This document shows positions 43,195 to 63,708 of a stretch of 64,000 bases of DNA, piece by piece. The DNA comes from a virus. The stretch's first letter is position 1, and every line of letters starts with the position of its first letter. Below the pieces are notes generated by a model. It saw only the letters and a list, made by a program, of their open reading frames with translations, was not told the DNA's origin and made no database searches. The DNA lies in the IMG/VR virus record IMGVR_UViG_3300009509_000017, positions 6,269 through 70,268 of that record; one strand, written 5' to 3'. A program made the translations under genes and the position numbers.

Positions 43195-43257
43195 ACATTC
43201 CTCCCCATATAGTTGGCTTATGGGAATAAGCGGCCCGGGTCACCCCAGGCCGCTCAT

Positions 43258-43434
43258 CTACCGTTCTCGCAGGCGCTGCCCGAGTCCCCCACGCTCAGGC
43301 TTGTCATGCTGCTCAGTCTGGCCAAGCTCACGCAGGAATGCAGTAGCATCACTGCACCCCTCACCGTTGAACCCTTGCGCATCGTACACGATCTTGCCGT
43401 CTATGATCTTGAACTCGATCACCTTGTCGTTCAT
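43258..43434 (-). CDS. DUF2997-like small protein (not in ORF track)
   Basis: MNDKVIEFKIIDGKIVYDAQGFNGEGCSDATAFL; ATGA overlap with the DUF1257-like gene. Confidence 0.75.
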   Translation of the reverse strand: MNDKVIEFKIIDGKIVYDAQGFNGEGCSDATAFLRELGQTEQHDKPERGGLGQRLRER

Positions 43435-43889
43435 CTGCTCAACCCCTCTCTGGCCAGCGTTGCGCCCATCTGCGCAGGGATGATCTCACCTGTGACGTGC
43501 CCGGTGTTCCTGTCCAGTTCGTAGCTCATTGTGAATCCCCGAGGCAGCCCACGCTCTGCTAACTTGAAGGCGTAGAGGTTCTGAATAGACTGCCAGTTTG
43601 CAGGCGCATTGCCATGGGCGATGTCGATCTCCGCCCGGTAGGTGCCGTCTCCGTTGGACACAAAGGCTGTGTCTCCACAGTAGCGCCTGGGTGTGGTGTC
43701 CAGGCCGCCACTCAGGCGACCGATCACCACTGTGGCGTCACGTCCCCTTGCCTTGCCAGGCATCTGCCATTTGTGGTAGGCTAGCTTGCCGGCAGGATCG
43801 TAGACGTATCTCAGTCCCAGTTCGTCCAGCACTGCACAGAGCAGTGCCATGTCATTGATCTCAGTCTGGACCGTTCCGTATACAGACAT
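43431..43889 (-). CDS. DUF1257/Ycf35-like protein
   Basis: MS.Y.TVQTEINDMALL..VL.ELG...GDTAF..NGDGTY. Confidence 0.75.
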   Translation of the reverse strand: MSVYGTVQTEINDMALLCAVLDELGLRYVYDPAGKLAYHKWQMPGKARGRDATVVIGRLSGGLDTTPRRYCGDTAFVSNGDGTYRAEIDIAHGNAPANWQSIQNLYAFKLAERGLPRGFTMSYELDRNTGHVTGEIIPAQMGATLAREGLSR

Positions 43890-43965
43890 CTTGCGTACCC
43901 CCTTTCGGTTAGTGTTGGTTATAGGAATAACGGCTGGCAGTATGTATCACTGCCAGCCGCATTCG

Positions 43966-45684
43966 CTATAGTTCGATCTGGCCCGGGCCAGTTGCCTCAT
44001 GGCCAACCGTGTCAGGCTGCGCTGACGATGCGGGCATTGCCCACTGCATTGCCTTTTCGCGCATCACGGCGATGTCATCACCTGCCTGGCGAGACATCTG
44101 CGACCGGACCACGATCTGGCTATGCAGTAGCTCGACCGTCAGGTCTTGCTCTGCACTCCATGCGATCCTGTGCGCAGCCTCTATTGCCTGCTCGATCCCC
44201 CGGGGATTGATTGACGACCGTACTGTCTCCGCTGCGACAGCGGGCAGCCCGGGGTCATCCACCAGGTGGCCCAGTCCCCTCTTGGTCAGGTGGATCTGGA
44301 AGACCTGCAGTGCCTCTGCCGTGTTCCTGGGCAGGTCTACCAGCCAGCGATCCTCAAACCGATCCCGCAGTGGTGCAGGCAGTCGGTCAGGGTGGTTGGT
44401 CGTAGCGACCACGATGCACTGCGACTTGCGTTCCTGCATCCAGGTGAGCAGTTGCTGCTGCATTTCCTTGGATACCTCATGCTGATCGCCGCTGTCACTA
44501 AAGACCAGGTCGATCTCGTCTACCCACAGCACACACAGGTTGATAGCGTCCGCTGCGTTCAGTACCGCACGGACGTTGGCGGCAGTGTTGCCCACCCACA
44601 TGTTCTTGCTCTCTGCAGGTGACCACCGCAGGATGGGCAGCAGGCCGCCACCCAGGCACTTGCAGGCCAGCGACTTGCCAGTGCCGGCAGGACCCATCAT
44701 CAGGATTGCCCGGGGTGGTCGCACATTGGCCGCCCGGGCAGCCTGGGTCAGTAGCCTGGGATAGTCCCTTACCGCTGTCTTGAGCAGGTCCAGGCCGCCG
44801 ATGTGATCCAGAGGTTCAGGTTCGATCAGTTCGATCCCCTGCTGTTGCTTGAGGATCTGAGCTTTCATGCCGCTGATGATAGGCCCGCACTTGTCAGCCG
44901 ACAGTTCTTTGGCCATCACCATAGCCTGGCGGAGTACGAACCCTGCCTGTGTCCAGGTCAGAGCCGTCAGCGCCTGGGCCAGGACCTCAGCGCCACCGTT
45001 CTTGACGTCATCGCTGACAGGGATATTCACCCTGCTGGCTGTGGCCCTGACCATTGCCGTCAGTTCGTCTACGTCAGGCAGTGGCCAGCGGATAACCACG
45101 ATCTCTGTGGTACTGTCGCCCAGTTGCGACATGTCAGGTGCCGTGATGATGCAGGTTGACTTGGTGGGCAGCAGACCGTAGAACAGGTCGCGCATGGACC
45201 GGATGCTGGCAGGGTCACCCTTGCCCTCACCCCCACCCAGGAACCTGTGCAGGTCGTGCATGATCAGGACCGATGCCCGTTCACGCATCAGGTCTTCGTC
45301 CAGGCCGCCATCGTTCAGTTCTGCCCTTGCCCACCTGCAGAAGTCCTGCGCTGCAGCGTAGGGCTGGTTGGTGTTCTTGTTCTTGCGTGCCGCGAGAAAG
45401 GCGTCAGCCTCATCGTAGCGCTTGGTCAGTGAGTCAGGGACATTCTGCAGGTCCCTGAACCGTGGTCGAACGAGCACCAGGCCGCCAGTGTGTGTCCACA
45501 CGAAAACCAGCCGCTCGTCCATGGCGATCTTGCTCTCATCGGTCAGGCTGATCATAGGGAAGTCAGTCATGCGCCTGACGTACTCCACGATCCGTGCCTC
45601 TTCCGTGGTCTCGATACCGATCAAGGGAACCCTTGCCCGTATCGCCGTCTCCAGTGCTGCCAGTGCTGCCTCAGTTGCTTTCAT
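43966..45684 (-). CDS. Ycf46-like AAA+ ATPase
   Basis: IRARVPLI.IETTEEAR, IGGLDLLK, GPAGTGKS, LWVDEID, ATTN. Confidence 0.9.
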   Translation of the reverse strand: MKATEAALAALETAIRARVPLIGIETTEEARIVEYVRRMTDFPMISLTDESKIAMDERLVFVWTHTGGLVLVRPRFRDLQNVPDSLTKRYDEADAFLAARKNKNTNQPYAAAQDFCRWARAELNDGGLDEDLMRERASVLIMHDLHRFLGGGEGKGDPASIRSMRDLFYGLLPTKSTCIITAPDMSQLGDSTTEIVVIRWPLPDVDELTAMVRATASRVNIPVSDDVKNGGAEVLAQALTALTWTQAGFVLRQAMVMAKELSADKCGPIISGMKAQILKQQQGIELIEPEPLDHIGGLDLLKTAVRDYPRLLTQAARAANVRPPRAILMMGPAGTGKSLACKCLGGGLLPILRWSPAESKNMWVGNTAANVRAVLNAADAINLCVLWVDEIDLVFSDSGDQHEVSKEMQQQLLTWMQERKSQCIVVATTNHPDRLPAPLRDRFEDRWLVDLPRNTAEALQVFQIHLTKRGLGHLVDDPGLPAVAAETVRSSINPRGIEQAIEAAHRIAWSAEQDLTVELLHSQIVVRSQMSRQAGDDIAVMREKAMQWAMPASSAQPDTVGHEATGPGQIEL

Positions 45685-45773
45685 CGCTCTCCCCCTTTGT
45701 GAGATAGTAAGGTTTGTTTGTCATAGGAATAACGCCTGCCACAGTGGATCTGTGACAGGCGTATCCTAGACTT

Positions 45774-48212: not shown

Positions 48213-48534
48213 TGCCCGCATCCTCTGGCGGCTCTTTGTACAGGTCAGGGAACTTTTTACACACCCGGTGGTAGTTCCGGCTGACCGTCTTGTAGTTCGG
48301 CACACCCTTGCGCTTGCCACCGATGATGTCCAGCACAACCTCAACCTGTCCGTTCTCGATAAGCTGGCCCAGTCCATGAAACTCGTCCCAAACCTTGGCC
48401 ACTACGGCGCCTACATGACCCCGCAGGTCAGGGTTGGTCTCCAGCACGAACCTGACCTGTGCAAACGTGCCACTGATGATGGGCACGTCTTTGTCCAGGC
48501 CAAACATACCAAGCTGTTTAGCTGTTCCCGCCAT
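48199..48534 (-). CDS. hypothetical protein
   Basis: AAGGGGG SD before ATG 48534. Confidence 0.6.
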   Translation of the reverse strand: MAGTAKQLGMFGLDKDVPIISGTFAQVRFVLETNPDLRGHVGAVVAKVWDEFHGLGQLIENGQVEVVLDIIGGKRKGVPNYKTVSRNYHRVCKKFPDLYKEPPEDAGNARS

Positions 48535-49234
48535 TTCCGTCTGTCCCCCTTTCGCTTTCTCCACACCGTGGCGTGGGAATCTGTTTGCCCGCCAGGTTCA
48601 AAAGGGCATCTTCCATCCATCCCTTGGCGGCTGTGATAGCGCCATCTGTGATGGTGATCATGCCGTTGGTTGTCCAGTCCAGTAGGACCAGGTCACTTGC
48701 GGGCATTGGCGCGAGCAGGCTGCCCGCATTGTCCAGGGTTGACTCCACGTCGATGACCCGCTGGTTGGCAGACCCCACATACTGCATATGGTCGTTGTCC
48801 AGTTCCCACATGTAGGGACCATCCACCAGCACCCTGATATGGAACAGGATCAGGCGACGGTAGCGCCACCCGATGGTTGTTCTGTTCACCAGTCGTTCCC
48901 ACTTGTACCCGGTGTAGACGATGATGTGCGCCGACTGATCCAGTGCCCTTATGGCAGTGACCAGCATCAGTAGTTCCTCTGCCTGATCGAAAGGTTCACC
49001 ACCAGTGATGGTGTATCGGTGCGAGCCACCACCCAGGTCCTTGTTCCACTCTACCATCTGTCCTGCGAGTCTCATAGGGTCACCAGCCATGCCACCCCAC
49101 TTGTCCCACAGTTCCTTGTTCTGGCAGCGCCCACAGTGGATACTGCAGCCCTGGAACCAGATGACTGTGCGGACACCCGGGCCATCTACGGTGCTTGCCG
49201 CTCTCATGCCAGCGTATCTAAGTACTAGGCTCAT
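48518..49234 (-). CDS. nrdG: NrdG-like radical SAM activase
   Basis: VDGPGVR..FQGCSIHCGRCQN, TGGEPF, LVDGPY, GSANQ. Confidence 0.85.
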   Translation of the reverse strand: MSLVLRYAGMRAASTVDGPGVRTVIWFQGCSIHCGRCQNKELWDKWGGMAGDPMRLAGQMVEWNKDLGGGSHRYTITGGEPFDQAEELLMLVTAIRALDQSAHIIVYTGYKWERLVNRTTIGWRYRRLILFHIRVLVDGPYMWELDNDHMQYVGSANQRVIDVESTLDNAGSLLAPMPASDLVLLDWTTNGMITITDGAITAAKGWMEDALLNLAGKQIPTPRCGESERGTDGNGGNS

Positions 49235-49262: not shown

Positions 49263-49294
49263 TAATAACGTATTGGCCAATGGATCTGTGACAG
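49263..49294 (-). promoter_or_regulatory. hairpin-less TGTCACA-N16-CGTT promoter-like motif
   Basis: CTGTCACAGATCCA-TTGGCCAATA-CGTTATT upstream of the nrdG-like gene. Confidence 0.65.
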
Positions 49295-49299: not shown

Positions 49300-50673
49300 C
49301 TACAATTCATCCAGCGGCATGCGTATCTGCAGCCCGCCATCTTTCTTGATGATCCTGGTGCCCACCACCTGGTTGCACCAGGGGCGCATGTACAGGAACA
49401 CGGTACCAATCGGCCCATTACGGTTCTTGCCAACGATCCACTCCATCCTGCCCTTGGCTGTGGTATCCTCTGGCTCGTACAGTTCCTGCCTATAGAGAAA
49501 GACCACTACATCAGCATCCTGCTCTAGTGCGCCAGACTCTCTCAGGTCAGAGAGGATAGGCCGCTTGTCCTGACGCTGCTCGACACCACGAGATAGCTGT
49601 GCATTGGCGACGACAGGGATATTAAGATCCTTGGCCAGCAACTTTAGCGCACGAGATATAGCGTCTACCTGCTCTCGACGGTTGAACCCATCGCTGGACG
49701 TCATAAGCTGCACGTAGTCGATGGCCAGCAGGTCTAGCCCGTACTCCGCCATGTGCTTGCGGGCAGTTGCCCGTAGCTCTGCAGGATCTTTGGTGCCACT
49801 CCACACCACGTGCATGGGCAAGTCTGTCAGCCTGGACATCGCATCCATCAGGCGCAGGAACTCACCGTCAGCGAACTGCCCACGTCGCACGCTCTTGGTG
49901 TTCAGCCCTGCCTCTATGCAGCCCATGCGCTGCGCTAGTTGGTCAGCGCTCATTTCCAGACTGATGAGCAGGGTGCGCTTGCCGGCCTTAGACGCATTCA
50001 TGCATAGGTTCAGCAGGGTAGCCGTCTTGCCCACCGATGGCCTGGCGGCCAGGATGGTCAGGTCACCCTTGTGCAGCCCGCCTACCAGGTCGTCCACATC
50101 GTGCCATCCAGTTGGCACGCCCATGACCCCCTGTCGCTGCATCGCACTCTCTACCTGGTCATACAATCCGCTCATCAGTTGGGCTGCAGACAGCTTGGAG
50201 TCGTCCACCATATCTGCTGTAGCCTCAAAATATAAGCGATCCGCATCGGCCAGGACATCGGTCAGGTCCCGGCTCTTGTCATAGGCAGCCTGCGCTACCC
50301 TGGCGGCCATGTCCACCATCTTGCGTCTCTTGGACAGTGACCGCACGATGTTAGCGTAGTGTTCTACGTGTAGGCTGGTTGGAGTTTCCAAAGAAAGTTC
50401 AGTGAGGTAGGTAGGTCCACCGCACTTGTCGAGATAACCCTGGTTGTCCAGAAAGTCTGACGTAGTCAGCAGGTCGATCTCGACCTGGCTCTGGTGCAAG
50501 CGTAACATGGCAGCGTAGATCCACTGGTGCCTGTCACGCCAAAAGTCGCCCGGTGCCAGCTTGTCGCTGATCCTGACAATTGCGTGTGGATCGATCAGCA
50601 GCGCACCAAGTACTCCCTGCTCTGCCTCTATAGAGGACAGAGGTTCTGGCTTGCTAGTCTTCCGTGTTGCCAT
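49300..50673 (-). CDS. dnaB: replicative DNA helicase
   Basis: AEQGVLG, AARPSVGKT, SLEM, IDYVQL, AQLSR, DLRESGALEQDAD. Confidence 0.97.
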   Translation of the reverse strand: MATRKTSKPEPLSSIEAEQGVLGALLIDPHAIVRISDKLAPGDFWRDRHQWIYAAMLRLHQSQVEIDLLTTSDFLDNQGYLDKCGGPTYLTELSLETPTSLHVEHYANIVRSLSKRRKMVDMAARVAQAAYDKSRDLTDVLADADRLYFEATADMVDDSKLSAAQLMSGLYDQVESAMQRQGVMGVPTGWHDVDDLVGGLHKGDLTILAARPSVGKTATLLNLCMNASKAGKRTLLISLEMSADQLAQRMGCIEAGLNTKSVRRGQFADGEFLRLMDAMSRLTDLPMHVVWSGTKDPAELRATARKHMAEYGLDLLAIDYVQLMTSSDGFNRREQVDAISRALKLLAKDLNIPVVANAQLSRGVEQRQDKRPILSDLRESGALEQDADVVVFLYRQELYEPEDTTAKGRMEWIVGKNRNGPIGTVFLYMRPWCNQVVGTRIIKKDGGLQIRMPLDEL

Positions 50674-51220
50674 CCATCCCCCTTTCGAGTAGGGCAGCGA
50701 CTGTGCCCGGTGTTAGTTGCCATGTTGCCACTCTCTGCCAATTCTCCACCATGGCAGGGTAGATCTGCTTGAGCCAGTGTGCCCGGTCTGTTGGTATGTT
50801 ATCACTGGCAGACAGGTACTTGACACCACCGATGGCGTCCACTGCCAATTCCACCACGTGGTGCGACCACTTGATAGGCCCATAGCCGCCGCCAGGCAGT
50901 GGCATGCCACGTGTGCCGTACTCCATGATATTGTGCCTGACCTCAGCCCAGGCATCCTCTGCACTTGGCAGACCCAGGTGCTCTGCTACCTCTGCCAGTG
51001 TAGCCTTGCGCACCACGGCTGGTGGTGGCATTATGGTCGCCATATCCCATGTGCGCAGAATGCGCAACACCCCTGCTTGTATGGCATTGATCGGCAAGCC
51101 GTCCAGTACCAGGGCATATGCCTGGATATTGCGGAGATTCAACCCAGGTGCTTGTGGCAGCCCATCATTCAGCACCCGCAGTGTCTTGCCCAGTTCTACT
51201 AGCCGCTCTTGGGATATCAT
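50654..51220 (-). CDS. helicase loader/inhibitor-like protein
   Basis: MPPPAVVR..SAEDAWAEV pattern; lies between initiator and dnaB. Confidence 0.6.
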   Translation of the reverse strand: MISQERLVELGKTLRVLNDGLPQAPGLNLRNIQAYALVLDGLPINAIQAGVLRILRTWDMATIMPPPAVVRKATLAEVAEHLGLPSAEDAWAEVRHNIMEYGTRGMPLPGGGYGPIKWSHHVVELAVDAIGGVKYLSASDNIPTDRAHWLKQIYPAMVENWQRVATWQLTPGTVAALLERGMDGNTED

Positions 51221-53049: not shown

Positions 53050-53052
53050 GGT

Positions 53053-53629: not shown

Positions 53630-53640
53630 TGGCTCTGGCA

Positions 53641-54061: not shown

Positions 54062-54107
54062 TCATAGGAATAACGCCTGCCACAGTGGATCTGTGACAGG
54101 CATGTAC

Positions 54108-54371: not shown

Positions 54372-54519
54372 TATATCACACCCCCTTTCAGATGAAAAAC
54401 GCCTGCCCTATAGGTGTGGTGGGACCAGGCACCCTGCCAGAGGTACCTGGTCCCATCCACTGAGAGGGTTAGCATAGGAAAAACGCCTGCCACGGTGGAT
54501 CTGTGACAGGCGTAGTATC

Positions 54520-54804: not shown

Positions 54805-54822
54805 CGGTCAATCCTTTCTGGC

Positions 54823-55221: not shown

Positions 55222-55360
55222 CCTGCCACCCCCTCATTGTGATGTCTTGCAAAGGAATAACGCCCGCCACAATGGATCTGTGACAGGCTATCCCTCTCAG
55301 TGCCAGCTATGTAACCCGCAAGCGGTAAGCCTATGGCTGGCGGCTTTGCCACGACGCTGG

Positions 55361-55753
55361 TTACCCCTTGGGTGTGTAGGGGACAGGCAGCATGGGTGTG
55401 GTGAGGATGCGCATGACCACATAGTGACCGTGCGTCTCCACATCAGGCACCGAGTGCTGGCGGCAGTCGCTGTTGCACATCATGCAGTGCTCGCCATGCG
55501 TCTCAGTTCCGTGTACACCCTCTGCAGACATGCGCCACCAGATGCCACCGGCGATGCCTGACAGCGTGCCATCCTCTGCCCGGGTGATCTCAGGTTCTAT
55601 GCCCAGGTCCCTGTGATATTCCAGGGTTGTCATTGATTCCTGGTGCAGTGCGACCGCACAGTGCGTGCACAGAAACCCTGCAGCGGTAAAGCCAATCACC
55701 CGGCGCTCAGACCCTTGAGGTTTCCAGGGCAGTGACTTGAAGTCTACGCCCAT
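55361..55753 (-). CDS. Cys-motif hypothetical protein (no SD)
   Basis: ATG about 10 nt after the repeat; CTHC and CMMC. Confidence 0.55.
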   Translation of the reverse strand: MGVDFKSLPWKPQGSERRVIGFTAAGFLCTHCAVALHQESMTTLEYHRDLGIEPEITRAEDGTLSGIAGGIWWRMSAEGVHGTETHGEHCMMCNSDCRQHSVPDVETHGHYVVMRILTTPMLPVPYTPKG

Positions 55754-55778
55754 GGTTTGCTCATAGGAATAACGCCTG

Positions 55779-55970
55779 TCACAGTGGATCTGTGACAGGC
55801 GTCTCATCCAGCAGTGCAAGCTCGTGTGTATCGTAGGCCCACACTACCCAGTCCGGCAGGCGTGCAGTCAGCATGGCCAGCAGGCGCAGCGCCCGCTGCT
55901 TACAGTCCGTGTCGAACACGACCACGTAGTCATTCAGTGGATTGTTGCGTGCCCGTATCTCGTAGCGCAT
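55779..55970 (-). CDS. hypothetical protein whose stop lies inside a repeat
   Basis: Reads ETPVTDPL-TGA through the repeat copy at 55763. Confidence 0.55.
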   Translation of the reverse strand: MRYEIRARNNPLNDYVVVFDTDCKQRALRLLAMLTARLPDWVVWAYDTHELALLDETPVTDPL

Positions 55971-55973
55971 GGC

Positions 55974-56483
55974 TCAGTCCACCACGTCTATAGGCCCATG
56001 CTCTAGCAGGTCGGCCAGAGGATAGTCAGGTGCCAGGCCGCGAGCCTGCCGTGCCTGGTCGTGCTGCACTTGCTCGTTCTCGACCTCAAACCAGATACCA
56101 CAGGCGTGGCATTCCCCCATCACGGTCTCACACTCAGTGACCGTGATGGTATCAGTGCTGCCGCAGTCAGGACAGATGGTCAGCCAGCCCAGTTTGTACT
56201 GGCGCAGGACCTCAGTAGCCACCCACTTGGCAGCAGTGACCCAGGTGCGGGTGCCGCAGGTCGTCTCGACCAGAGCCTTGGGCTTGCCCACAGCGTTGCG
56301 ATCCAGCATCGCACGTGCCGTGTCACTGGCAGGTCTGTCGCCGCCAGAAAAGCACAGGGCGCCCGGCAGGTCGTTGCCGACAGCCAGGACCTTGATCAGG
56401 CGACCATCCTGCACGTCTCGATAAGGGTGATCGTTGCACCCATGGTAGGTCTTGCCTACCAGCCAGTTGTAGTTATTGGCCAT
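55974..56483 (-). CDS. Zn-ribbon protein
   Basis: CPDC...CHAC. Confidence 0.7.
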   Translation of the reverse strand: MANNYNWLVGKTYHGCNDHPYRDVQDGRLIKVLAVGNDLPGALCFSGGDRPASDTARAMLDRNAVGKPKALVETTCGTRTWVTAAKWVATEVLRQYKLGWLTICPDCGSTDTITVTECETVMGECHACGIWFEVENEQVQHDQARQARGLAPDYPLADLLEHGPIDVVD

Positions 56484-56559
56484 GTTACACCCCCTTACAG
56501 TGATGTGTGTTGCATAGGAATAACGCCTGCCACAGTGGATCTGTGACAGGCGTGTTATC

Positions 56560-56832
56560 CTAGTTCACGAGCGCCTTGGCATCCTCTACCAGGTAGGGCA
56601 GGGCATCGGCCAGGCCGCTGCAGTCCCCCATGATTGCCAAGTTGTCATAGAACATGAGCGCTGCAGTAGGCTCATCCTCAGTAAAGGTCACGCTGCCGAT
56701 CTCTATCTCGACACCGTCACCTGCACTGGAGTCATACATCTGCAGGTGCTCGCCCAGTTCCACACGTTCATCCTCATCATCGACCACTACCAGTTCAAAG
56801 GCGACCCAGGCTTTCAGTTTCAGTCTAGCCAT
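56560..56832 (-). CDS. small acidic protein
   Basis: Standard cassette leader/SD; D/E-rich. Confidence 0.7.
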   Translation of the reverse strand: MARLKLKAWVAFELVVVDDEDERVELGEHLQMYDSSAGDGVEIEIGSVTFTEDEPTAALMFYDNLAIMGDCSGLADALPYLVEDAKALVN

Positions 56833-56909
56833 CTTGCACCCCCTCATGTGATGTGTCTTGCACAGGAATAACGGCTGGCAGCGTGTATCACTGCCAGCCG
56901 TGTCATGAA

Positions 56910-57095
56910 CTACTCGAACACATACAGGACCTCAAGCCCTACTCGTTCCGCCTTGCGCTTTGCGTCCTGCTTGCTGGTCGCCTGGATCTCTACGGCAGTG
57001 ACCCCATTTGCGTAGTAGGCATGCCAGCCCACGATCTCTGCGGTGGACACCATGCCACCCTTGACATTCACTGTGTACACAGTTTCGCCTTTCAT
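56910..57095 (-). CDS. hypothetical protein
   Basis: ATGA-coupled. Confidence 0.6.
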   Translation of the reverse strand: MKGETVYTVNVKGGMVSTAEIVGWHAYYANGVTAVEIQATSKQDAKRKAERVGLEVLYVFE

Positions 57096-57307
57096 GCTCT
57101 CACCTTTCTCGTGTGGCCAGTGGGGATGACCTTGGTGTTGACACCCACGTATGCTGTCTCACGTCCCCTTGATCCCACCTTGATCGCATTGTAGTACTGC
57201 CCAGGTGCCTTGTAGTAGGTACCGGGCAGCCAGCCGCTAGAATTGCCACCACTGCGCCAGGGCACGATCTTGAACTCTGCGCCCATGGCTAGCTCTCCGA
57301 ACGTCAT
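57092..57307 (-). CDS. hypothetical protein
   Basis: Cassette leader/SD. Confidence 0.65.
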   Translation of the reverse strand: MTFGELAMGAEFKIVPWRSGGNSSGWLPGTYYKAPGQYYNAIKVGSRGRETAYVGVNTKVIPTGHTRKVRA

Positions 57308-57382
57308 AGTGCACCCCCTCATGTGATGTGTCTTGCACAGGAATAACGGCTGGCAGCGTGTATCACTGCCAGCCGTCCTGTA

Positions 57383-57697
57383 TCACAGTCTGTCCAGGTA
57401 GCGTTCTGTACCCCACTCTGTGCGGGTAGCCCGGGCGGCGTACCTGACTGTTATCGACCCTTTGATGTTGAAGTAGACATTCTGTCCGATGTCAGCCCGT
57501 AGTGAGTGTCTTTTCTTGTCCCAGTAGATAACCTTGCGTTGTATTCTGGTTCGCAGGCCAGGTGTGCATGCCGGGCAGTTGGCTATATGGTAGCCATTGA
57601 ACCCATCCCCCAGGTCTTTACGCCACCCGCAGGCACATTCTACATATCCACCCTTATAGTTGAGATCGACTGTCTTGACCAGTTCTGCGGTGTCCAT
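57383..57697 (-). CDS. Zn-ribbon hypothetical protein
   Basis: CACG...CPAC; cassette leader. Confidence 0.7.
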   Translation of the reverse strand: MDTAELVKTVDLNYKGGYVECACGWRKDLGDGFNGYHIANCPACTPGLRTRIQRKVIYWDKKRHSLRADIGQNVYFNIKGSITVRYAARATRTEWGTERYLDRL

Positions 57698-57770
57698 CTT
57701 GCACCCCCTCAGTGATGTGTCTTGCATAGGAATAACGGCTGGCAGCGTGTATCACTGCCAGCCGTATGTG

Positions 57771-57971
57771 TCACAGCGTGTGTACCGTGCCATTGAACTC
57801 TTGCACGCACTCGCCACCCTCTCGCCAGGCGAGCAGGGCAGAGATCCTGCCAGGCCGATCCAGTTGCTCACGGATCTTGTCTCGTGCCTCATCCACGTCA
57901 TAGGCACCCACCGTGCAGATGGGCATGTAGCCACCGTGCAGGCTAGGTCGTACAGCCTTAAATGTCAGCAT
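57771..57971 (-). CDS. hypothetical protein
   Basis: Cassette leader/SD. Confidence 0.65.
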   Translation of the reverse strand: MLTFKAVRPSLHGGYMPICTVGAYDVDEARDKIREQLDRPGRISALLAWREGGECVQEFNGTVHTL

Positions 57972-58044
57972 CTTGCACCCCCTCAGTGTGATGTCTTGCA
58001 TAGGAATAACGCCTGCCACAGTGGATCTGTGACAGGCGTCATGG

Positions 58045-58749
58045 TTACTTGTCAGAGACGATGGCCAGGTCAGCCAGCGTCAGCGTCTCATCACCCCAGT
58101 AGAACCGATAAGGCGACGGTGTGTACTGGCTACCAGATGCGTAGCGCCACGACCCCGGGCCAGGCGTCAGGTCCAGGGATGCACTGGTGCGCTCGACAGG
58201 TCGCTTGTCCCCCCAGGTGTGGGGACCCCTGCGTATCACGGAGTAGTGCACCCATGCAGGCGCATAGCCACGGTGTGAGAACTCAGGGACCTCATCACGG
58301 TACACCTTGACGGTGACCCCGATCAGGACATCGTCAGCCAGTTGCGTGTACCAACGGAACTCCAGGCGGACCTGGTACCCGGTGGTCTGCTCGACCCGGC
58401 AGTAGAAAGGCGCCACCTGGGCAGGGTCTCCGCCATAGCGCTTGACAAAGGCGTCAGCGGCAGTTGCCGGCAGTATCGACCGGCACGATCCCTTGATGTG
58501 CACGAGCGGCACAGGCGTGTAGACCTCTGCGATCTCTTGCACTCCAGCCAGGTCCACAACACCGAACGAAATGCTGCCAGTGGTGCCATAGATCTGTGAC
58601 GTGTGGATGAACTCGACCTTGTCTGCGTGCGCATCAGGCATGGCGTCCATGATGCGTGACTTGCGGTCGATCTCTGCCAGCTTGGCCTGGTACTCTTTCT
58701 CTGCCTTGGCCAGCATGGCCGCTTTCAGTTCCTCTGCTGTCTGTGCCAT
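58045..58749 (-). CDS. hypothetical protein
   Basis: GAGGGGGTGCAAC SD; 234 aa. Confidence 0.75.
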   Translation of the reverse strand: MAQTAEELKAAMLAKAEKEYQAKLAEIDRKSRIMDAMPDAHADKVEFIHTSQIYGTTGSISFGVVDLAGVQEIAEVYTPVPLVHIKGSCRSILPATAADAFVKRYGGDPAQVAPFYCRVEQTTGYQVRLEFRWYTQLADDVLIGVTVKVYRDEVPEFSHRGYAPAWVHYSVIRRGPHTWGDKRPVERTSASLDLTPGPGSWRYASGSQYTPSPYRFYWGDETLTLADLAIVSDK

Positions 58750-59069
58750 AGTTGCACCCCCTCTTTGTGATTTGTGTACAAAGGTTAGACGGTCTGTAGA
58801 CATGTGCGCCCGATGCGCTGCCGTCTCGTGTCATAGGAATAACGCCTGCCACAGTGGATCTGTGACAGGCGTGGCACAGGTGACCAAAGGCGTCAGGTGT
58901 GGCACTGGTGCCCAGGTGCTGTACCAGGTGTAAGAGCAGCACCCGGCGCCAGGGGTAGCACTGACGCCCGCGACTATGTGTTAGCTAGATCATGTTGCAC
59001 CCCCTCAGCGTGGTGTGTCTTGCATAGGAATAACGCCTGCCACAGTGGATCTGTGACAGGCGTCAGGTC

Positions 59070-59543
59070 CTAGTCGTCGTCAAACATTTCCTGCCAGCCA
59101 TCCAGGCTGCCAGCGATGCGGGCGATGGTGCGCCTGCGTGTGCACTCAGGGCAGTACATGTCGCCATCCTCATCGTCAGGATCTTGGATCAGGTCATCCT
59201 CATGGCAGGCCAGGTCGCAGCCCGGGCAGTCTTCATACTCGCTCAGTTCGTCGTACAGCCAGTTGGTGACCTGGTCGTACAGTTCGTCGTGGTATAGCTT
59301 GCTTGCCACGTCTGCCAGGGTCACTTGCGTGGTGTCCAGGTTGGCGCTACCGATGTAGCGCTGTGCCAAGTTGGGATTGTCCGCCATAGCCGTCATCAGG
59401 TCGCCGGTCATGACAGGCACCGAGCTTCTAACTTGCTGCTCGATCCACTCTGACCAGTCAGCGTCTACGCTGTCGGTGCGGATCTGTTCCACGAGAGCGC
59501 TTGTCAGGCGCTCAAAGTCCTCTCTCAGTTCACCGTTCATCAT
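59070..59543 (-). CDS. ocr: Ocr-like (T7 gp0.3) DNA-mimic anti-restriction protein with C-terminal Zn ribbon
   Basis: LVEQIRTD..D..E.I.....VPVMTGDLMTAMA aligns by eye with Ocr LKENIRYD..DDLHDAI....VPHYYADIFSVMA; very acidic. Confidence 0.6.
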   Translation of the reverse strand: MMNGELREDFERLTSALVEQIRTDSVDADWSEWIEQQVRSSVPVMTGDLMTAMADNPNLAQRYIGSANLDTTQVTLADVASKLYHDELYDQVTNWLYDELSEYEDCPGCDLACHEDDLIQDPDDEDGDMYCPECTRRRTIARIAGSLDGWQEMFDDD

Positions 59544-59701
59544 GCACCCCCTCAGTGTGATGTGTGTAGCAAAGGAAAAATGCCTGCAGGTTGTGCACAC
59601 CTGCAGGCTACCAGTCTGGCGTCATGGCGTCCCATGGATACGCGACCTGGCTTGCATAGGAATAACGCCTGCCACAGTGGATCTGTGACAGGCGTCATGG
59701 G

Positions 59702-60061
59702 CTATTCTAATGCAGCGTTGTAGCACTCCAGGCACCAGACAGGCTCGCCTGACCAGTGGATATCGACAGGCACAGACGCACCGCATGACTCGCAGTCTTG
59801 GAAAGTCTCACCGGGCGCTGCGCCGTCGCCAAAGTATGCCTCATTCTCCGCCCGCTCGATTGCAGCCTGATCGCAGAACTCGCCAGTGTTGACATAGTCA
59901 TCGCACCAGGGGCAGTAGTGGCTGTCCCCCTCTATGTGTACCTCTGTGCCGCACTTGGGGCAGATACAGCCACAGTGTGGCGCCGCAGAATAGCCAGACC
60001 ATGTGGCATCGTAGGTCGCATCGCCCGGGCGGGCAGATGTTTTGTGCTTTCCCATAGCCAT
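59702..60061 (-). CDS. double Zn-ribbon acidic protein
   Basis: CPKC, CPWC, CESC, CLEC. Confidence 0.7.
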   Translation of the reverse strand: MAMGKHKTSARPGDATYDATWSGYSAAPHCGCICPKCGTEVHIEGDSHYCPWCDDYVNTGEFCDQAAIERAENEAYFGDGAAPGETFQDCESCGASVPVDIHWSGEPVWCLECYNAALE

Positions 60062-60383
60062 GTTGCACCCCCTCAAAGTAGTGTACCTCAAAGGAATAAC
60101 GCCCACCAGGTGATCAGCCTGGTGGGCTAGGTGAGAGGTTTGATCTTGCGCCTACGGCATGCCCTTGCCCATGGCGATTCACCATCTGGCCAGCCTTGCT
60201 AGACTGGTCATTCTTTCCACCTATGGCACACCACGTGCCCGCAGTGTGTAGCGCCCATCCTGGCCATGCCTGGCCATCAGTCAGGTGGTTATCTGTGTTA
60301 CAGGATGGCACCGACGACATAGCCGGCCAATCCTCTCATAGGAATAACGCCTGCCACAGTGGATCTGTGACAGGCGTCATGGG

Positions 60384-60773
60384 CTAGTTCTCCAGGCTAG
60401 CCAGCAGGTTCTCCAGGTAGGTCAGTTGCACCTGGGCATCGTAGCCCATGTATTGCAACTGGGCAAAGGTGGCATCCAGCCAGGTGTAGGACAGGTAGAA
60501 GTCGGGTTGGTCGCCCTCAGTGCCACGGACGCGAGACATGGCGCCGCCACCGTCGAACAGGACCTTGCGACCCTGCACCATCGCCCGCAGGACCCCGAAC
60601 CCGATCATGTCCACAGGCGTGTCGGTCTTGAGCGTGGCGCCGTCACGATGGCCCACACACTGGATGGTGTAGGCGTCAGCCTTGCCGTCAGCGTCAGGCA
60701 TGCTAGCGAACAGGATAGCATAGCCATCCCTGGCCCGATCCACTACGGCTTGCAGTTGTTCCCTCACAGACAT
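60384..60773 (-). CDS. hypothetical protein
   Basis: Cassette leader/SD. Confidence 0.7.
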   Translation of the reverse strand: MSVREQLQAVVDRARDGYAILFASMPDADGKADAYTIQCVGHRDGATLKTDTPVDMIGFGVLRAMVQGRKVLFDGGGAMSRVRGTEGDQPDFYLSYTWLDATFAQLQYMGYDAQVQLTYLENLLASLEN

Positions 60774-60849
60774 GTTGCACCCCCTCACAGTGATGTGTCT
60801 TGCATAGGAATAACGCCTGCCACAGTGGATCTGTGACAGGCGTGATGTC

Positions 60850-61248
60850 CTAGATTGTGAACCGGCGCCCGATGAAAGGTGGGCGCTGTTCGATCTCGTT
60901 GCCATTGACCCATGCCTTGAACTCGCGCCAGGACATGGACAACAGGCGTCGATAGAGTGCGATCTGTTCCTTGGTAGGCGTGAAAGGTACGCCGTACTCA
61001 TAGGTGGCCTGGCCAGTGATCACAATGTTCTCGCTTGCGTCATCACCAACAAAGACCCCGTTGCCGTTGTGTCCGTAGATCCCGCCACCATTGGTGCCGC
61101 CAGTGATACCTACTGCGAACTCGCGACCATTCTTAAAGGTGATCTTGGCGTATGCGACGATCCAGCACAGGATGCCTGCACTGGGGCGGTCGTAGATGTG
61201 GCGACCGATCTGATCCTCTATCTTGATAACCTGTCTCACGGTAGGCAT
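60850..61248 (-). CDS. hypothetical protein
   Basis: Cassette leader/SD. Confidence 0.7.
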   Translation of the reverse strand: MPTVRQVIKIEDQIGRHIYDRPSAGILCWIVAYAKITFKNGREFAVGITGGTNGGGIYGHNGNGVFVGDDASENIVITGQATYEYGVPFTPTKEQIALYRRLLSMSWREFKAWVNGNEIEQRPPFIGRRFTI

Positions 61249-61361
61249 GTTGCACCCCCTCTTGGTGTAGCCCATGGCGGCGACCTCTGGCGCCGTCGCC
61301 ACCATGTGCTCATAGGAATAACGCCTGCCACAGTGGATCTGTGACAGGCGTGATGTAATTC

Positions 61362-61703
61362 CTAGTCAGCGCCACCAAACACCATCGGACAGTATACCAC
61401 ATAGATCGTGTTGGTCACAGTCACGGTCACAGTCACGGTGACCACAGGCGGCTCGACAGGCGGAGCCACAGGTGCAGGCGGCTCGACAGGCGGAGCCACA
61501 GGTGCAGGCGCCTGACAGGCAGGTCCACAGGGACCCGCTTGTGTAGCCTTGCCAGTTTCCTGACCTTGGCGTGCCGTGCTTTGATTCTCAGATCCAGGGA
61601 TTGCAGATGCAGCGGGCGTACCCTGACCCGCAGCCACAGTGACTGCAGCCAGGAGTGTAGCCAGAATGGCCAGGACCAGGACGATAGATGCCTTGCGTGT
61701 CAT
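61362..61703 (-). CDS. secreted Pro-rich protein with C-terminal VYCPMV motif
   Basis: Signal peptide, APVAPPVEPP x2, VT repeats. Confidence 0.65.
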   Translation of the reverse strand: MTRKASIVLVLAILATLLAAVTVAAGQGTPAASAIPGSENQSTARQGQETGKATQAGPCGPACQAPAPVAPPVEPPAPVAPPVEPPVVTVTVTVTVTNTIYVVYCPMVFGGAD

Positions 61704-61778
61704 GATTGTACCCTCTCAGTGTAATGTGTGTCATAGGAATAACGCCTGCCACAGTGGATCTGTGACAGGCGTGATGTC

Positions 61779-62039
61779 CTAGAAACCAGCGGCCCGCACC
61801 TTGGCCAGCTTGGCCCGCATGACGTCATCGAACACGATCCGCGTGCCATCGGGCAGGCATGACCATTCCCTGACGTACATGTCACCGATGGAGACGGCGC
61901 CCGCAAAGATGGGCGAGACGGTCTTGACCGTGCGAGTGATCGAGCGCTTGCGATTGTCCAAGACGGTCGCCGGGCGCCCATCCCTCAGTAGGATCTCAGT
62001 ACCCTTTGTGATCTCGTGCGCAAAAATCTTTCCAGCCAT
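61779..62039 (-). CDS. hypothetical protein (paralog of 54108-54371)
   Basis: IFAHEITKGT..VLD..EW...DGT.I. Confidence 0.7.
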   Translation of the reverse strand: MAGKIFAHEITKGTEILLRDGRPATVLDNRKRSITRTVKTVSPIFAGAVSIGDMYVREWSCLPDGTRIVFDDVMRAKLAKVRAAGF

Positions 62040-62465
62040 GTTGCACCCCCTCAAAGTAGTGTACCTCAAAGGAATAACGCCATCAGGTGATCAGCCTGAT
62101 GGCGTGTATATTCCACAACGCACCTGCAACAGTTCTCGATTTGATGACCCGGCTAGAACTGTTCCAGGTGTCATACCCCTAGAGACCGGGGAGAGCATAG
62201 CGCCTATATTGCCGCTGTCTCTCAAAGGAATAACGCCTGCCACAGTGGATCTGTGACAGGCGTGCAGGATATCCGTGTGACGTCCCCCAACGTCAGGATA
62301 TCCACCATGGGCGTGCAAGTGTAGTGCACGACAGGTGCCGGGTATCGTGTGACCCCCATGCTGGCCACCCCGAAATGTGATCGCAGCGTGTACCCATGCG
62401 CTTGGGCATTGCGCCGGTCTCATAGGAATAACGCCTGCCACAGTGGATCTGTGACAGGCGTCAGT

Positions 62466-62864
62466 CTAGTTCTGTGCAGCCCATTCACGCAGGGTCAGCG
62501 GGTCATCATCTGAGCAAGGCTGATCCCAGGGATTGACCCATCCCTCTGGATAGGCCCAGGTCTCCAGATCAACATCAGGCGCCCAGGCGCCATCCTTACA
62601 GAAAAGCTCGACATTGGCGCCAAGCGGAAGGGCAGCGTTATTGTACTCGACCCCACCGGCAGCGTATAGTGAGCCATCGTCAGCCAGGCTGATCAACAGG
62701 TGATCGAACAAGGCCAGGTAGCACTTGCGCAGCCCAAAGGCTGCAAGTGTATCAGTCCATGACTCGTAGCCAAGCGAGCCAGTGTAATGGATCTCGACCC
62801 GGGGAAAGTGAGCGTCGAAATCCATGACCATAATACCAGTTCGGCCATCGAAATCGCCATGCAT
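62466..62864 (-). CDS. acidic hypothetical protein
   Basis: GAGGA SD before ATG 62864. Confidence 0.65.
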   Translation of the reverse strand: MHGDFDGRTGIMVMDFDAHFPRVEIHYTGSLGYESWTDTLAAFGLRKCYLALFDHLLISLADDGSLYAAGGVEYNNAALPLGANVELFCKDGAWAPDVDLETWAYPEGWVNPWDQPCSDDDPLTLREWAAQN

Positions 62865-62958
62865 TGTACTGTCCTCTCTTGGGAATTGTACCCAAAGTGT
62901 AATGTCCCTCATAGGAATAACGCCTGCCACAGTGGATCTGTGACAGGCGTCATGTGAT

Positions 62959-63708
62959 CTATGACTTGCGCATGCGATTCTGGCGGCTATGGTAAGCAGC
63001 ATCTGAGCCTTTAGGCTGCGGACCATGGATCAAGAGCGCAAAATCATGCTTGGCAAGTATTGCGAGACTGTCTTTGTGATCGATGGGCAGATCACGTGCG
63101 GCAGCCTCTGCCGGAGTGTAGACAACATAGGCAGTAGGATAGCCGAACATGGCCGCCATGGCGTCATCACGCCCGCCATGACTGTACATAATGCGCATGT
63201 TGGGCGGAACTTGGCCAGACGTCACGAATGGATGGAGAGCCTGAAAGTTCTTGGTGTAGGCGTAAAAGATCACGCCTGGGAAGAGGTCAGCCACCAAGAG
63301 CCACGCCCGCAAGTATGCCGCATTGAAGAAATCGCCGGAGACGTGCACCCTGACGATCTTGGCATTCTTGGGCATAGACCGGGCTATAAGTGACGCCATG
63401 GCATAGGCGTCATTTGTCCCGGCATCCTGCAATGCAGCCAGATTCCGCCAGACCATGTCGCGGACACTGGGGTACATTGCTTCGAGACTAGCCGCAAAGC
63501 ACCGGAAACGGCACTCAGGGCCATCGGTGAGCTTTCCGGTCGCCCGGTCAGCCCGAGACAGACATTCACGTGCAGCCGGGCAGGTATGACCAGCCGGCAG
63601 GCTGAACCCAAAGATCTCAGAGCGCTTCACGCCCATAACGGACGCGAGCTTGCGAGTCTTTGTGTTAGCCTTGCTGAATGTCAAGGTTTGGGGTGATTCC
63701 TGAGACAT
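62959..63708 (-). CDS. Gp88-like Fe-S protein
   Basis: NTK, FSLPAGHTCP...C...CFA, RVHVSGDF, YAYTK. Confidence 0.8.
   Translation of the reverse strand: MSQESPQTLTFSKANTKTRKLASVMGVKRSEIFGFSLPAGHTCPAARECLSRADRATGKLTDGPECRFRCFAASLEAMYPSVRDMVWRNLAALQDAGTNDAYAMASLIARSMPKNAKIVRVHVSGDFFNAAYLRAWLLVADLFPGVIFYAYTKNFQALHPFVTSGQVPPNMRIMYSHGGRDDAMAAMFGYPTAYVVYTPAEAAARDLPIDHKDSLAILAKHDFALLIHGPQPKGSDAAYHSRQNRMRKS

Follow-up and report, generated by a model that had tools for sequence, protein, structure and literature searches.

Two kinds of repeated intergenic element described in phages come closest to the locus reported here. The PeSL motifs of T4-type phages are described as combining, in one motif, a stem-loop terminator and a strong sigma70-like early promoter (-35, -10 and AT-rich upstream sequence); they are reported to be concentrated beside orphan genes in hyperplastic regions, where relatives differ by motif-bounded indels or replacements and where mini-circles have been described (PMC2839356, PMC4122927). 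The stoperators of cluster A phages are described as asymmetric words of about 13 bp, present in more than 20 copies at promoters and in short intergenic spaces, with an orientation that follows transcription in both arms and a repressor that carries a helix-turn-helix (HTH) and a stoperator domain (PMC9283540). Here we examine a 64,000-nt stretch of viral DNA (hereafter the window), bases 6269-70268 of the 70,268-bp IMG/VR virus record IMGVR_UViG_3300009509_000017, in which repeated hairpin elements divide about 20 kb of a minus-strand early arm into short cassettes. The array recalls PeSLs in its architecture and plasticity, and stoperators in an invariant 14-nt word carried by most of its hairpins.

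Between 43.2 and 63 kb we counted 27 clear hairpins followed by T(A/T)TTCC, two weak ones and one copy that has no hairpin (Table 1). Folding free energies are -16.7 to -28.7 kcal/mol for the clear elements and about -12 for the weak ones. There are 17 elements of type A, four of type B and two of type C, plus single variants, and all genes and elements of the array lie on the minus strand. On that coding strand type A reads ACGCCTGTCACAG-ATCCA-CTGTGGCAGGCGT and then TATTCCTATG, which gives a stem of 13 bp, a loop of 5 nt and a tail rich in T; its 34-nt core is present in 14 exact and three near-exact copies, and type B keeps the same register. The string GTTATTCCT occurs 22 times, always on the minus strand between 43.9 and 62.9 kb, against 0.16 occurrences expected. 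The two type C stems differ by a single compensatory pair, and at these two joints 48 nt of tail, leader and gene start are identical before two unrelated genes (60056-60103, 62034-62081). Three successive type B modules form a block within the type A array.

The elements keep a regular position between genes. Among 28 tabulated elements, a set that includes the hairpin at 40957 outside this interval, the stem starts 3-11 nt past a stop codon in 20 and ends 38-40 nt ahead of the next ATG in 12. Roughly half of the joints continue into a conserved leader of 25-30 nt, and in 11 genes the leader holds a strong Shine-Dalgarno (SD) sequence, GAGGGGGTG, 4-5 nt ahead of the ATG. Start-to-start spacing in the dense part is 191-833 nt, with two shortest steps of 85 and 84 nt, and two hairpin-less copies upstream of the first gene carry the family out to 63,970. 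A preliminary description of this DNA had proposed a repeat family of about 30 hairpins in a single orientation, placed just after stop codons and often followed by a conserved leader. The counts given above agree with each of these points, and the strand, which is the minus strand throughout, is a correction to that account. Two further candidate parts of the module were dropped: the stop codon TAG, which is the commonest stop throughout the phage, and a pairing of the tail with the SD sequence, which gave no consistent structure.

Aligning capsid homologues and then scanning IMG/VR identified a best match, the 64,769-bp record G001 (capsid 81% identical), which carries elements of the same kind. 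GTTWTTCCT occurs 14 times in G001, always on the reverse strand of its early arm, and once or twice in each of four more distant relatives. The capsid homologues found include some at 82-91% identity. The G001 element reads ACGCCTGACAGTTTTACA..CTGTC.GGCGT, then TATTCCTATG and a similar leader; stem base, tail and leader are like those of the window element, and the inner stem and loop differ, complementarily. When 33 elements from both phages (19 distinct) are aligned, bases pair in 96.8% of cells; offsetting the partner by 1-3 columns lowers this to 25-47%. Both-sided changes occur at five pairs, and the covariation score was reached by none of 500 shuffles. Cells outside Watson-Crick pairing are G.T in 30 cases and A.C in two, and the proportion that pairs is 96.8% on the minus (mRNA-sense) strand against 85.4% on the plus strand; the cells are not independent of one another, but the G.T cells nonetheless fall at seven different pair positions. 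Because of this excess of G.T over A.C, together with the covariation, it is the sense strand that folds, and the hairpin is selected on that strand, as RNA or as single-stranded minus-strand DNA. As a separate observation, the G-to-A change at 55779-55781 in the element 55763-55802 also creates the TGA that ends the upstream 63-aa open reading frame (ORF), which enters the hairpin.

These hairpins share a further trait with intrinsic terminators, in that a GC-rich stem stands directly before a U-rich tract on the sense strand. The same tail, T(T/A)TTCCT, is found behind hairpins that close operons (53049-53017, about 39418 and the G001 orthologue at 59364), and the string CGTTATTCCTATG is base-exact across types A, B and C and G001. 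Type A tails hold 4-5 U in 8 positions, and the TTTTTCC variants hold more. Since the type A tract is interrupted, we read the joints as probable leaky terminators or attenuators and as 3'-end hairpins. In both phages a sigma70-type promoter immediately follows the terminator at the end of the array (TTGCAC-N17-TATAAT in the window; TTGACA-N18-TATAAT, 12/12 consensus, in G001), and therefore the host reads canonical promoters. Between this promoter and a 125-aa ORF (52424-52801) that precedes the O-like initiator lies a leader of about 160-190 nt (window 52800-52990, G001 59140-59335). The only hexamer pair among the 28 joints, ATGACA-N18-TACAAT, belongs to the leader that follows the element at 61744; its -10 ends 3 nt before the ATG. 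Across the 20 kb we found six promoter-like sites against 9.1 expected, and a second scan gave three on the minus strand. A standard promoter would not fit into the 38-40 nt that separate stem from ATG; given joints that hold no sigma70 promoter, the downstream genes would need either read-through or a non-standard promoter. One RNA run holds phage sequence, as six small contigs.

The 5' arm and loop of type A contain an asymmetric 14-mer, CTGTCACAGATCCA, that is constrained beyond pairing. It is present in 21 exact copies with no changes, all on the minus strand, and elsewhere at up to two mismatches it has only two plus-strand hits, at 9989 and 35355 (0.73 expected). The corresponding words of type B, CTGGCAGTGATACA, and of G001, CTGACAGTTTTACA, are exact in 4/4 and 13/13 copies. 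All three words fit the common pattern CTGNCANNNNTNCA, the type B word being nearer to that of G001 (10/13 positions) than the type A word is (7/13). Variation does occur in the 3' arm and the stem base; none falls within the 14-mers. Intergenic hairpins hold 18 of the 21 copies, one lies between the DnaB and radical-SAM genes, and two lie upstream of the first gene. The spacing 14-mer-N10-CGTT is fixed in all 21, including a copy whose stem has been rebuilt, and at three window sites (49267-49294 and the two upstream of the first gene) it stands without a hairpin. At one orthologous pair (window 47598, G001 53950) different flanking arms make the stem, and each phage's own word lies mostly in the loop.

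A need to pair would by itself allow transitions in one arm as well as in the other; the asymmetry of the 14-mer therefore calls for a further explanation. Because the word persists where the hairpin has been rebuilt or lost, it is probably a recognition site, and it suggests that some factor reads this sequence specifically, the simplest candidate being one that binds double-stranded DNA. Candidate readers that fit are a stoperator-style repressor, a promoter factor and an RNA-binding antiterminator. No sigma-factor, HTH_3 or S24 peptidase domain was found in the incomplete contig, and tblastn with the L5 repressor gp71 gave no match (best E 3.0 in the window contig and 0.34 in G001). All 21 copies are co-oriented with the minus-strand genes, and the plus-strand arm holds none, so this is single-arm evidence. 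In G001 one exact plus-strand copy of its 13-nt word lies in the structural arm at 38922, co-oriented with transcription; it could be a chance match or a single site in that arm. Sense-strand covariation, a tail common to true terminators and the survival of the 14-mer where the hairpin is missing are additions to the preliminary description.

The comparison with G001 also bears on plasticity. Collinearity between the two phages, at a nucleotide identity of 65-72%, extends from the structural genes as far as window position 52409. Of the 19 ORFs called in the arm between 52.8 and 39.4 kb, 16 have homologues in G001, and these follow one another in matching order. Within the array, homologues exist for 5 of 22 called window ORFs and, in reverse, for 5 of 11 G001 array ORFs (tblastn agrees both ways). 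The shared genes run 58749, 56832, 55753, 55221, 53424 in the window, and their homologues run h(56832), h(58749), ..., h(55221), h(55753), ..., h(53424) in G001, which amounts to two swaps of neighbouring shared genes. In both phages each shared gene has elements on either side. DNA similarity over the cassette 55218-55776 begins in the upstream tail and ends at the ATG of the next, unrelated gene. The array is hyperplastic relative to the adjacent arm. A modular, reshuffled region had been proposed from the window, and the small shared gene set, the elements that flank each of its members and an order that is not invariant between relatives bear the proposal out.

A k=31 contig from a different sample, which spans two variant elements, independently confirms window order across 55262 and 55774 (55.1-56.5 kb). 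Logan k=31 contigs break at each identical element copy; neither junction nor circle reads were seen, and such contigs would not have revealed them. The one listed joint, from 57764 to 44001, was rejected as cross-mapping of type B onto the copy at 43921. In one DNA run (X2) the rest of the arm is present at 99% or higher, and no contig reaches 88% over 50.0-54.0 kb (window 50004-54005); divergent letters start at 49936 and coverage returns within the type A element at 54072. Judged from contigs, this gap may be a swapped replication-initiation module.

The explanation that we favour, and to which we give slightly better than even chances as a whole, is that leaky terminators or 3'-end hairpins combined with strong-SD leaders serve as portable regulatory joints and as sites of homologous recombination. 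The leftward early arm would then be one long transcription unit of single-gene cassettes. Each joint would comprise the invariant, phage-specific asymmetric 14-mer (CTGTCACAGATCCA in type A) in the hairpin's 5' arm and loop, a 3' arm that completes the 13-bp hairpin in the sense transcript, the U-rich tail UAUUCCUAU and, in about half of the joints, the conserved 25-30-nt leader with its very strong SD. On the RNA, hairpin and tail would terminate transcription incompletely, as an intrinsic terminator (attenuator), and would protect the 3' end; they would insulate each orphan gene and grade its expression, and the leader would restart translation. Because they are near-identical direct repeats, the modules could also serve as joints for homologous recombination, through which cassettes would be gained, lost and reordered with their neighbours unharmed, in the logic of the PeSLs of T4-type phages. 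The identical direct repeats measure 41-83 nt, and it has been argued for PeSLs that repeats of such length suffice for homologous recombination (PMC2839356). A phage-specific factor, whether repressor, antiterminator or promoter factor, probably reads the 14-mer and sets all joints together.

Several observations weigh against this explanation. The U-tract of type A is interrupted, and a simple terminator scan flags just 2 of the 17 type A elements (62263 and 55288, with TTT-containing tails). A plain terminator requires neither 100% identical copies nor an invariant 14-mer, nor does it require base-exact conservation of a tail between phages that are 65-72% identical. No candidate protein that would bind the 14-mer was found in a contig that is about 80% complete. 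As to plasticity, the comparison covers a single relative whose contig stops within the array, so some of the seemingly missing homologues may lie past that end. Every intergenic space of the array holds an element, which makes breakpoints at elements a weak test. Both gene orders come from metagenome assemblies through repeats, and independent confirmation covers 55.1-56.5 kb. A bolder version, in which one phage-specific protein reads the 14-mer in about 20 hairpins and so switches the whole arm (as a stoperator-terminator repressor or an RNA-binding antiterminator), with the module doubling as exchange joint, seems to us possible but not probable.

Three rival explanations turn on what the 14-mer does. 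It could be the double-stranded DNA site of an immunity repressor, an idea that concerns the word alone and can coexist with the joints proposed above. The two hairpin-less copies at the head of the arm (T1 and T2), which stand 16 nt upstream of TATTAT and TACAAT hexamers, respectively, would be operators overlapping the -35 of early promoters, and some 18 intergenic copies would block elongating RNA polymerase in the lysogen, with hairpin and tail adding termination. The 21 exact copies of an asymmetric 13-14-bp word in one orientation to transcription, many in short intergenic spaces, fit such silencing. So do a word that is phage-specific, with three variants under CTGNCANNNNTNCA, as immunity specificities behave; an encoded integrase and an L5-like layout with a GP88-family gene at the right end; and the multi-copy palindromes beside terminators and start sites in distant relatives. 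Yet the contig (about 80% complete) gave no HTH_3, S24 peptidase or L5 gp71-like match, the window has two different words (A and B), and a roadblock on DNA leaves the G.U-biased covariation and the fixed CGTT spacing unexplained. The plus-strand structural arm has no copies, unlike L5, whose sites are described as genome-wide (PMC9283540). We consider this silencing conceivable, with the balance tilted against it. Rather unlikely, in our view, is a composite terminator-promoter in which the 14-mer supplies a -35-like TG(N)CA(S) and CGTT, 17 nt downstream, a -10-like box, to be read by an alternative sigma or phage factor and giving leaders of about 30 nt; this pair of boxes would have a geometry like that of promoters of extracytoplasmic function (ECF) sigma factors. 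The fixed 14-mer-N10-CGTT spacing in all 21 copies, the three hairpin-less ones and the one with a rebuilt stem included, speaks for it, as do the base-exact CGTTATTCCTATG of types A, B, C and G001, a conserved leader of constant length (38-40 nt from stem to ATG in 12/28) and hairpin-less copies at the expected promoter place, upstream of the first gene; PeSLs, too, are described as terminator-plus-promoter composites (PMC2839356, PMC4122927). It has to contend with joints that have no sigma70 hexamer pair although the host uses consensus sigma70 promoters, with a contig in which no sigma-factor domain was found, with types C and D and canonical terminators that have the tail but no 14-mer, and with a uniform cassette orientation that suits read-through. 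Somewhat less likely again is a target at the RNA level, where a phage RNA-binding protein would grip the 14-mer and either block the hairpin, as in antitermination of the ribonucleic antiterminator (RAT) kind at about 20 terminators, or cut the transcript into monocistronic mRNAs. A sense strand that folds, a constraint limited to 5' arm and loop, a phage-specific word and a need for read-through where internal promoters were not seen are all as this would predict; the 14-mer is, however, kept where there is no hairpin or where it lies in a large loop, which are different RNA contexts but the same DNA context, and the scanned cassette proteins yielded neither an RNA-binding nor a nuclease domain.

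The remaining two rivals concern how cassettes or elements move. The preliminary description had suggested exchange either by recombination between the identical repeats or via the tyrosine recombinase at 40977-41975. In an integron-like form of the second idea, the hairpins would be attC-like folded sites at which the recombinase excises and inserts cassettes. Co-oriented cassettes that each end in a hairpin, the preferential folding of one strand, a cassette order that varies between relatives and an encoded Xer-like tyrosine recombinase could all be so explained; the related hairpin said to follow the recombinase gene is indeed there, at about 40946-40971 with the tail TTATTCCT. But on TIGR02249, the integron-integrase model, whose cutoff is 265 bits, the recombinase reaches 50.3 bits, over residues 257-322 only (its last 66 or so), and XerA/C/D models score higher. 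It lies 2-22 kb from the elements and 12 kb from the dense array, from which the whole replication module separates it, and its position is syntenic in G001. The stems are perfect or G.U-containing 13-bp helices with no bulges, extrahelical bases or attC boxes; those boxes have the consensus RYYYAAC/GTTRRRY, which GTTATTC does not fit. The U-rich tail and fixed SD distance suggest an RNA function, and identical direct repeats of 41-83 nt are enough for homologous recombination, so we regard this mechanism as highly improbable. Nearly as hard to sustain is selfish spread of a mobile or gene-converting intergenic repeat that has no regulatory role, akin to repetitive extragenic palindromic (REP) sequences or miniature inverted-repeat transposable elements (MITEs). 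The 14 copies identical over at least 34 nt do suggest recent spread or homogenisation, and the family is limited to two phage lineages in all collections searched. Elements at orthologous positions in phages 65-72% identical, a constant register to stop and start codons and compensatory changes that preserve the stem are not what such a repeat would leave; nor were target-site duplications, a transposase or copies in host-genome collections found.

The phage itself has a plus-strand structural arm and a minus-strand arm that runs from 64 kb down to 39.4 kb, and IMG/VR classes the record as linear and about 80% complete. It is an uncultured, temperate, siphovirus-like phage with an integrase and a tape measure. 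A megablast with 20 kb found no DNA-level similarity in GenBank phages, and its terminase is less than 40% identical to any known terminase. A capsid homologue at 55% identity carries the label of an Anaerolineae metagenome-assembled genome, a weak hint that the lineage may infect Anaerolineae. Three 23-nt direct repeats at 51962-52052 in the O-like initiator gene look like iterons of a lambda-style origin inside the initiator gene. The left ends of the two independent contigs (contig bases 1-300; G001 bases 241-297) fall at about an equal place and are rich in short tandem repeats, and they may mark a true genome end. At the other end, three copies of a 21-29-nt GC-rich repeat (GCGCCGGTCGCATCGGGCGCC) at 63868-64000 are interleaved with the two hairpin-less 14-mers; they may be a regulatory or terminal repeat region, and probably stopped the assembly there.

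Table 1. Features of the window, with the early arm listed from right to left and the structural arm last. Coordinates are window positions.
Feature	Coordinates	Strand	Remark
Whole dense cassette array	53008-63970	minus	From two hairpin-less 14-mers upstream of the GP88 gene to the strong terminator 53049-53017
P-type copy T2: 14-mer, N10, CGTT, CT, TACAAT; no hairpin	63935-63970	minus	Candidate promoter or operator
P-type copy T1: 14-mer, N10, CGTT, CT, TATTAT; no hairpin	63832-63867	minus	
GP88 family (PF17338)	62959-63708	minus	First array gene, far right
Type A element, 13-bp stem, 5-nt loop, tail TATTCCTAT	62911-62950	minus	
Cassette ORF, 132 aa, no family match	62466-62864	minus	
Type A element	62422-62461	minus	
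Type A element, variant tail TATTCCTTT	62224-62263	minus	
Type C element	62068-62105	minus	One compensatory pair apart from the other C copy
Cassette ORF, 86 aa	61779-62039	minus	Paralogue of 54108-54371
Type A element	61733-61772	minus	
Cassette ORF, 113 aa, hydrophobic N-terminus, 30-nt tandem repeat	61362-61703	minus	
Type A element	61312-61351	minus	
Cassette ORF, 132 aa	60850-61248	minus	
Type A element, then full leader	60804-60843	minus	
Cassette ORF, 129 aa	60384-60773	minus	
Type A element	60338-60377	minus	
Possible ORF, 68 aa, end inside next hairpin	60114-60320	minus	
Type C element	60090-60127	minus	Same 48 nt of tail, leader and gene start as in the other C copy
Cassette ORF, 119 aa, weak zinc-ribbon matches below cutoff	59702-60061	minus	
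Type A element	59656-59695	minus	
Single-variant hairpin, tail ATTTTTCCTTT, leader	59571-59608	minus	
Cassette ORF, 156 aa	59070-59540	minus	
Type A element, then leader, 2-codon mini-ORF, about 150 nt non-coding	59024-59063	minus	
Type A element	58833-58872	minus	
Cassette ORF, 234 aa	58045-58749	minus	G001 homologue, 38% identity
Type A element, then leader	58000-58039	minus	
Cassette ORF, 66 aa	57771-57971	minus	
Type B element, then leader	57726-57765	minus	
Cassette ORF, 104 aa	57383-57697	minus	
Type B element, then leader	57337-57376	minus	
Two overlapping ORFs, 71 and 61 aa, one cassette	56910-57307	minus	
Type B element, then leader	56862-56901	minus	
Cassette ORF, 90 aa	56560-56832	minus	G001 homologue, 48% identity
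Type A element, then leader	56514-56553	minus	
ORFs of 169 and 63 aa	55779-56483	minus	Second stops at TGA in next element
Type A variant, 3'-arm G-to-A: U.G pair becomes U-A	55763-55802	minus	
Cassette ORF, 130 aa	55361-55753	minus	G001 homologue, 64% identity
Type A variant, two 3'-arm transitions, G.U pairs remain	55251-55290	minus	
ORFs of 132 and 94 aa	54520-55221	minus	First: G001 homologue, 40% identity
Type A variant, tail TTTTTCCT	54474-54513	minus	
Cassette ORF, 87 aa	54108-54371	minus	Paralogue of 61779-62039
Type A element, 5'-base C-to-T giving a U.G pair	54064-54103	minus	
Structured non-coding stretch, two hairpin+TTTTTCC elements (anchors 53651, 53546), tRNA-T-arm-like GGTTCGAATCC	53470-54063	minus	
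Last array ORF, 123 aa	53053-53424	minus	G001 homologue, 51% identity
Strong canonical terminator closing the array, 14-bp stem then TTTTTCCTGTT	53008-53049	minus	
Sigma70-type promoter TTGCAC-N17-TATAAT, replication module	52959-52987	minus	
O-like initiator	51217-52527	minus	
DnaB	49300-50673	minus	
P-type copy: 14-mer, N10, CGTT; no hairpin; between DnaB and radical-SAM genes	49267-49294	minus	G001 orthologous site is a standard hairpin
Radical-SAM activase-like protein	48518-49234	minus	
Variant: 14-mer kept, different 12-bp stem, most of 14-mer in loop	47587-47633	minus	
Type A element upstream of AAA ATPase gene	45723-45762	minus	
AAA ATPase	43966-45684	minus	
Type B' element, two 3'-arm changes, pairing kept	43921-43960	minus	
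RusA	42206-42706	minus	
Xer-like tyrosine recombinase (phage integrase)	40977-41975	minus	Not an integron integrase
Short hairpin and CCTTATTCCTTT after integrase gene	40946-40971	minus	
Dam methylase	40195-40917	minus	Early arm
Terminator at convergent junction with structural arm, tail TTTTTCCTGTT	39407-39444	minus	
Tape measure, 1348 aa, largest ORF	25504-29550	plus	Structural arm
Major head protein	19623-20594	plus	Structural arm
Portal	7412-9538	plus	Structural arm
Large terminase	5638-7401	plus	Structural arm

The cargo of the array is largely orphan. GP88 apart, it gave no Pfam, PHROG or NCBIfam match above cutoff: 20 scanned cassette proteins had no Pfam match above cutoff and seven of eight scanned had no PHROG. 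A homologue search with the 234-aa protein returned only itself, by a method that needs shared 5-mers and that missed the G001 homologue at 38% identity. The cargo had been called mutually unrelated, and this is mostly so; the exception is a pair of paralogues at 35% identity (62039-61779 and 54371-54108). A perfect 30-nt tandem duplication at 61445-61504, in the 113-aa ORF, encodes a proline/alanine-rich repeat. The idea that some units are RNAs fared less well. Two short non-coding units fold no better than shuffles (z -0.36 and -0.92) and are not conserved in G001, and we dropped them as candidate structured RNAs or G001-conserved units; Rfam at E<=1 gave no match across 40-64 kb. The 594-nt non-coding stretch at 53470-54063 (minus strand) folds better than 100 of 100 shuffles (z -3.0), and for this stretch ARAGORN and Rfam were empty and G001 had no counterpart. 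At one joint in each phage (window 59024-58990, G001 about 61136-61090) a full leader with a strong SD leads into a 2-codon mini-ORF (ATG-xxx-stop) and then 150-170 nt of unconserved non-coding sequence; these joints look like decayed cassettes or start-stop elements.

The window phage and G001 are the only genomes in which the element family turned up across IMG/VR, GTDB genomes and JGI metagenomes. Exact and degenerate element patterns gave nothing or single chance matches in IMG/VR, where a consensus pattern found G001 only. The GTDB genomes held 74 single matches and no multi-copy genome, and the JGI metagenome contigs nine single matches with no further likeness to the phage. Single-protein searches for relatives with the O-like initiator and GP88 returned nothing useful, and alignment of a 431-aa protein found G001 alone. 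Near-identical copies of the window phage are present in runs of seven studies, with marine sediment, mangrove, sludge and soil labels. More distant relatives (capsid 53-60% identical) do not have such arrays; they carry palindromes of 16 or 20 bp, in 4-9 copies, intergenic and near terminators and start sites. In two of them, G002 and G003, the 16-bp palindrome is TATTTCCYRGGAAATA, with 8-9 copies per genome in both arms. Of the 17 copies, at least 7 are followed within 1-5 nt by an SD-like CCTCC/GGAGG, and two or more adjoin a terminator hairpin; for one G003 copy an SD follows about 10 nt off, and the flanks shown of the remaining copies contain neither SD nor terminator. G002 also has about 10 tandem, iteron-like GGAAAGAATTTTCC units at 40083-40370. 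A third, G004, has four copies of a perfect 20-bp palindrome, ATCTGCAAACGTTTGCAGAT, two of them directly after terminator hairpins.

Hyperplastic early regions house the fastest-evolving host-takeover and counter-defence genes of phages. That such genes can stay expressible and yet exchangeable is documented for T4-type phages, in the accounts of their PeSLs (PMC2839356, PMC4122927). The array has a PeSL-like logic in an unrelated, uncultured, temperate lineage, and it packs hairpin, word and leader into about 70 nt. Since the word differs between relatives and the architecture is constant, the two phages offer a natural experiment on the co-evolution of regulators and their sites. The module is a compact insulator-plus-ribosome-binding-site part that could be tested in synthetic operons, and the roughly 20 orphan early proteins are candidates for functional screens. 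Were a single protein to read the word, the locus would be a new, compact coupling of immunity or temporal control with cassette exchange, in a lineage that may infect Anaerolineae.

Several known systems resemble the array in part. It differs from CRISPR arrays in having spacings of about 85-833 nt with ORFs and SD sites, as opposed to 28-37-bp repeats and 30-40-bp spacers. N4-type promoters are short hairpins read by a giant virion RNA polymerase; here the largest ORF is the 1348-aa tape measure, and the stem has 13 bp. The Streptomyces phage phiC31 has conserved inverted repeats with repeated early promoters, and cluster K mycobacteriophages have start-associated sequences (SAS/ESAS). Like these, the array is a set of multi-copy intergenic early-arm motifs near terminators or start codons in a temperate siphovirus; the sequences are unrelated, and its motif is fused with a terminator hairpin. 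Integrons share with it promoterless, co-oriented genes that each end in a site folding on one strand, but the array has no integron integrase and no attI/Pc beside the recombinase, its stems are perfect and its features suggest an RNA function.

Closer still are intrinsic terminators: the elements likewise have a GC-rich stem of 10-14 bp with a loop of 5-7 nt and a tail rich in U, they stand on the sense strand shortly after stop codons, and they share their tail motif with operon-end terminators. They depart from them in an interrupted U-tract (UAUUCCU), about 20 identical copies, a constraint beyond pairing and a next gene within 40 nt. The likeness to L5 lies in a 13-14-bp asymmetric word in more than 20 copies, intergenic and near the early promoter region and co-oriented with transcription in the one arm that holds it, and in a genome plan with a central integrase and a right arm of leftward early genes that begins with a GP88-family gene. 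In 19/19 Mycobacterium phage records listed (272 match), the GP88 homologue is a minus-strand gene about 2 kb inward of the right end, and in L5 it is the second gene from that end. Unlike the stoperators of L5, the word of the array is half of an RNA hairpin with a U-rich tail and is absent from the structural arm, and no gp71-like repressor was detected. With the PeSLs the array shares terminator-like stem-loop motifs that flank single orphan genes in a hyperplastic early region in one orientation, relatives among which the flanked genes have been gained, lost or replaced, and a repeat length sufficient for recombination. The analogy with PeSLs, drawn already in the preliminary description, holds for architecture and plasticity and fails for the sigma70-type promoter (one hexamer pair in 28 joints): the module has no such promoter in its 38-40 nt between stem and ATG. 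Its hairpin, moreover, embeds an invariant asymmetric 14-mer, and its phage is temperate and siphovirus-like, whereas PeSL phages are T4-like myoviruses. Because neither a sigma70 promoter nor a cognate repressor was found, we place the array in neither the PeSL nor the stoperator family. It is a regulatory-cassette array closest in logic to PeSLs, with a stoperator-like word.

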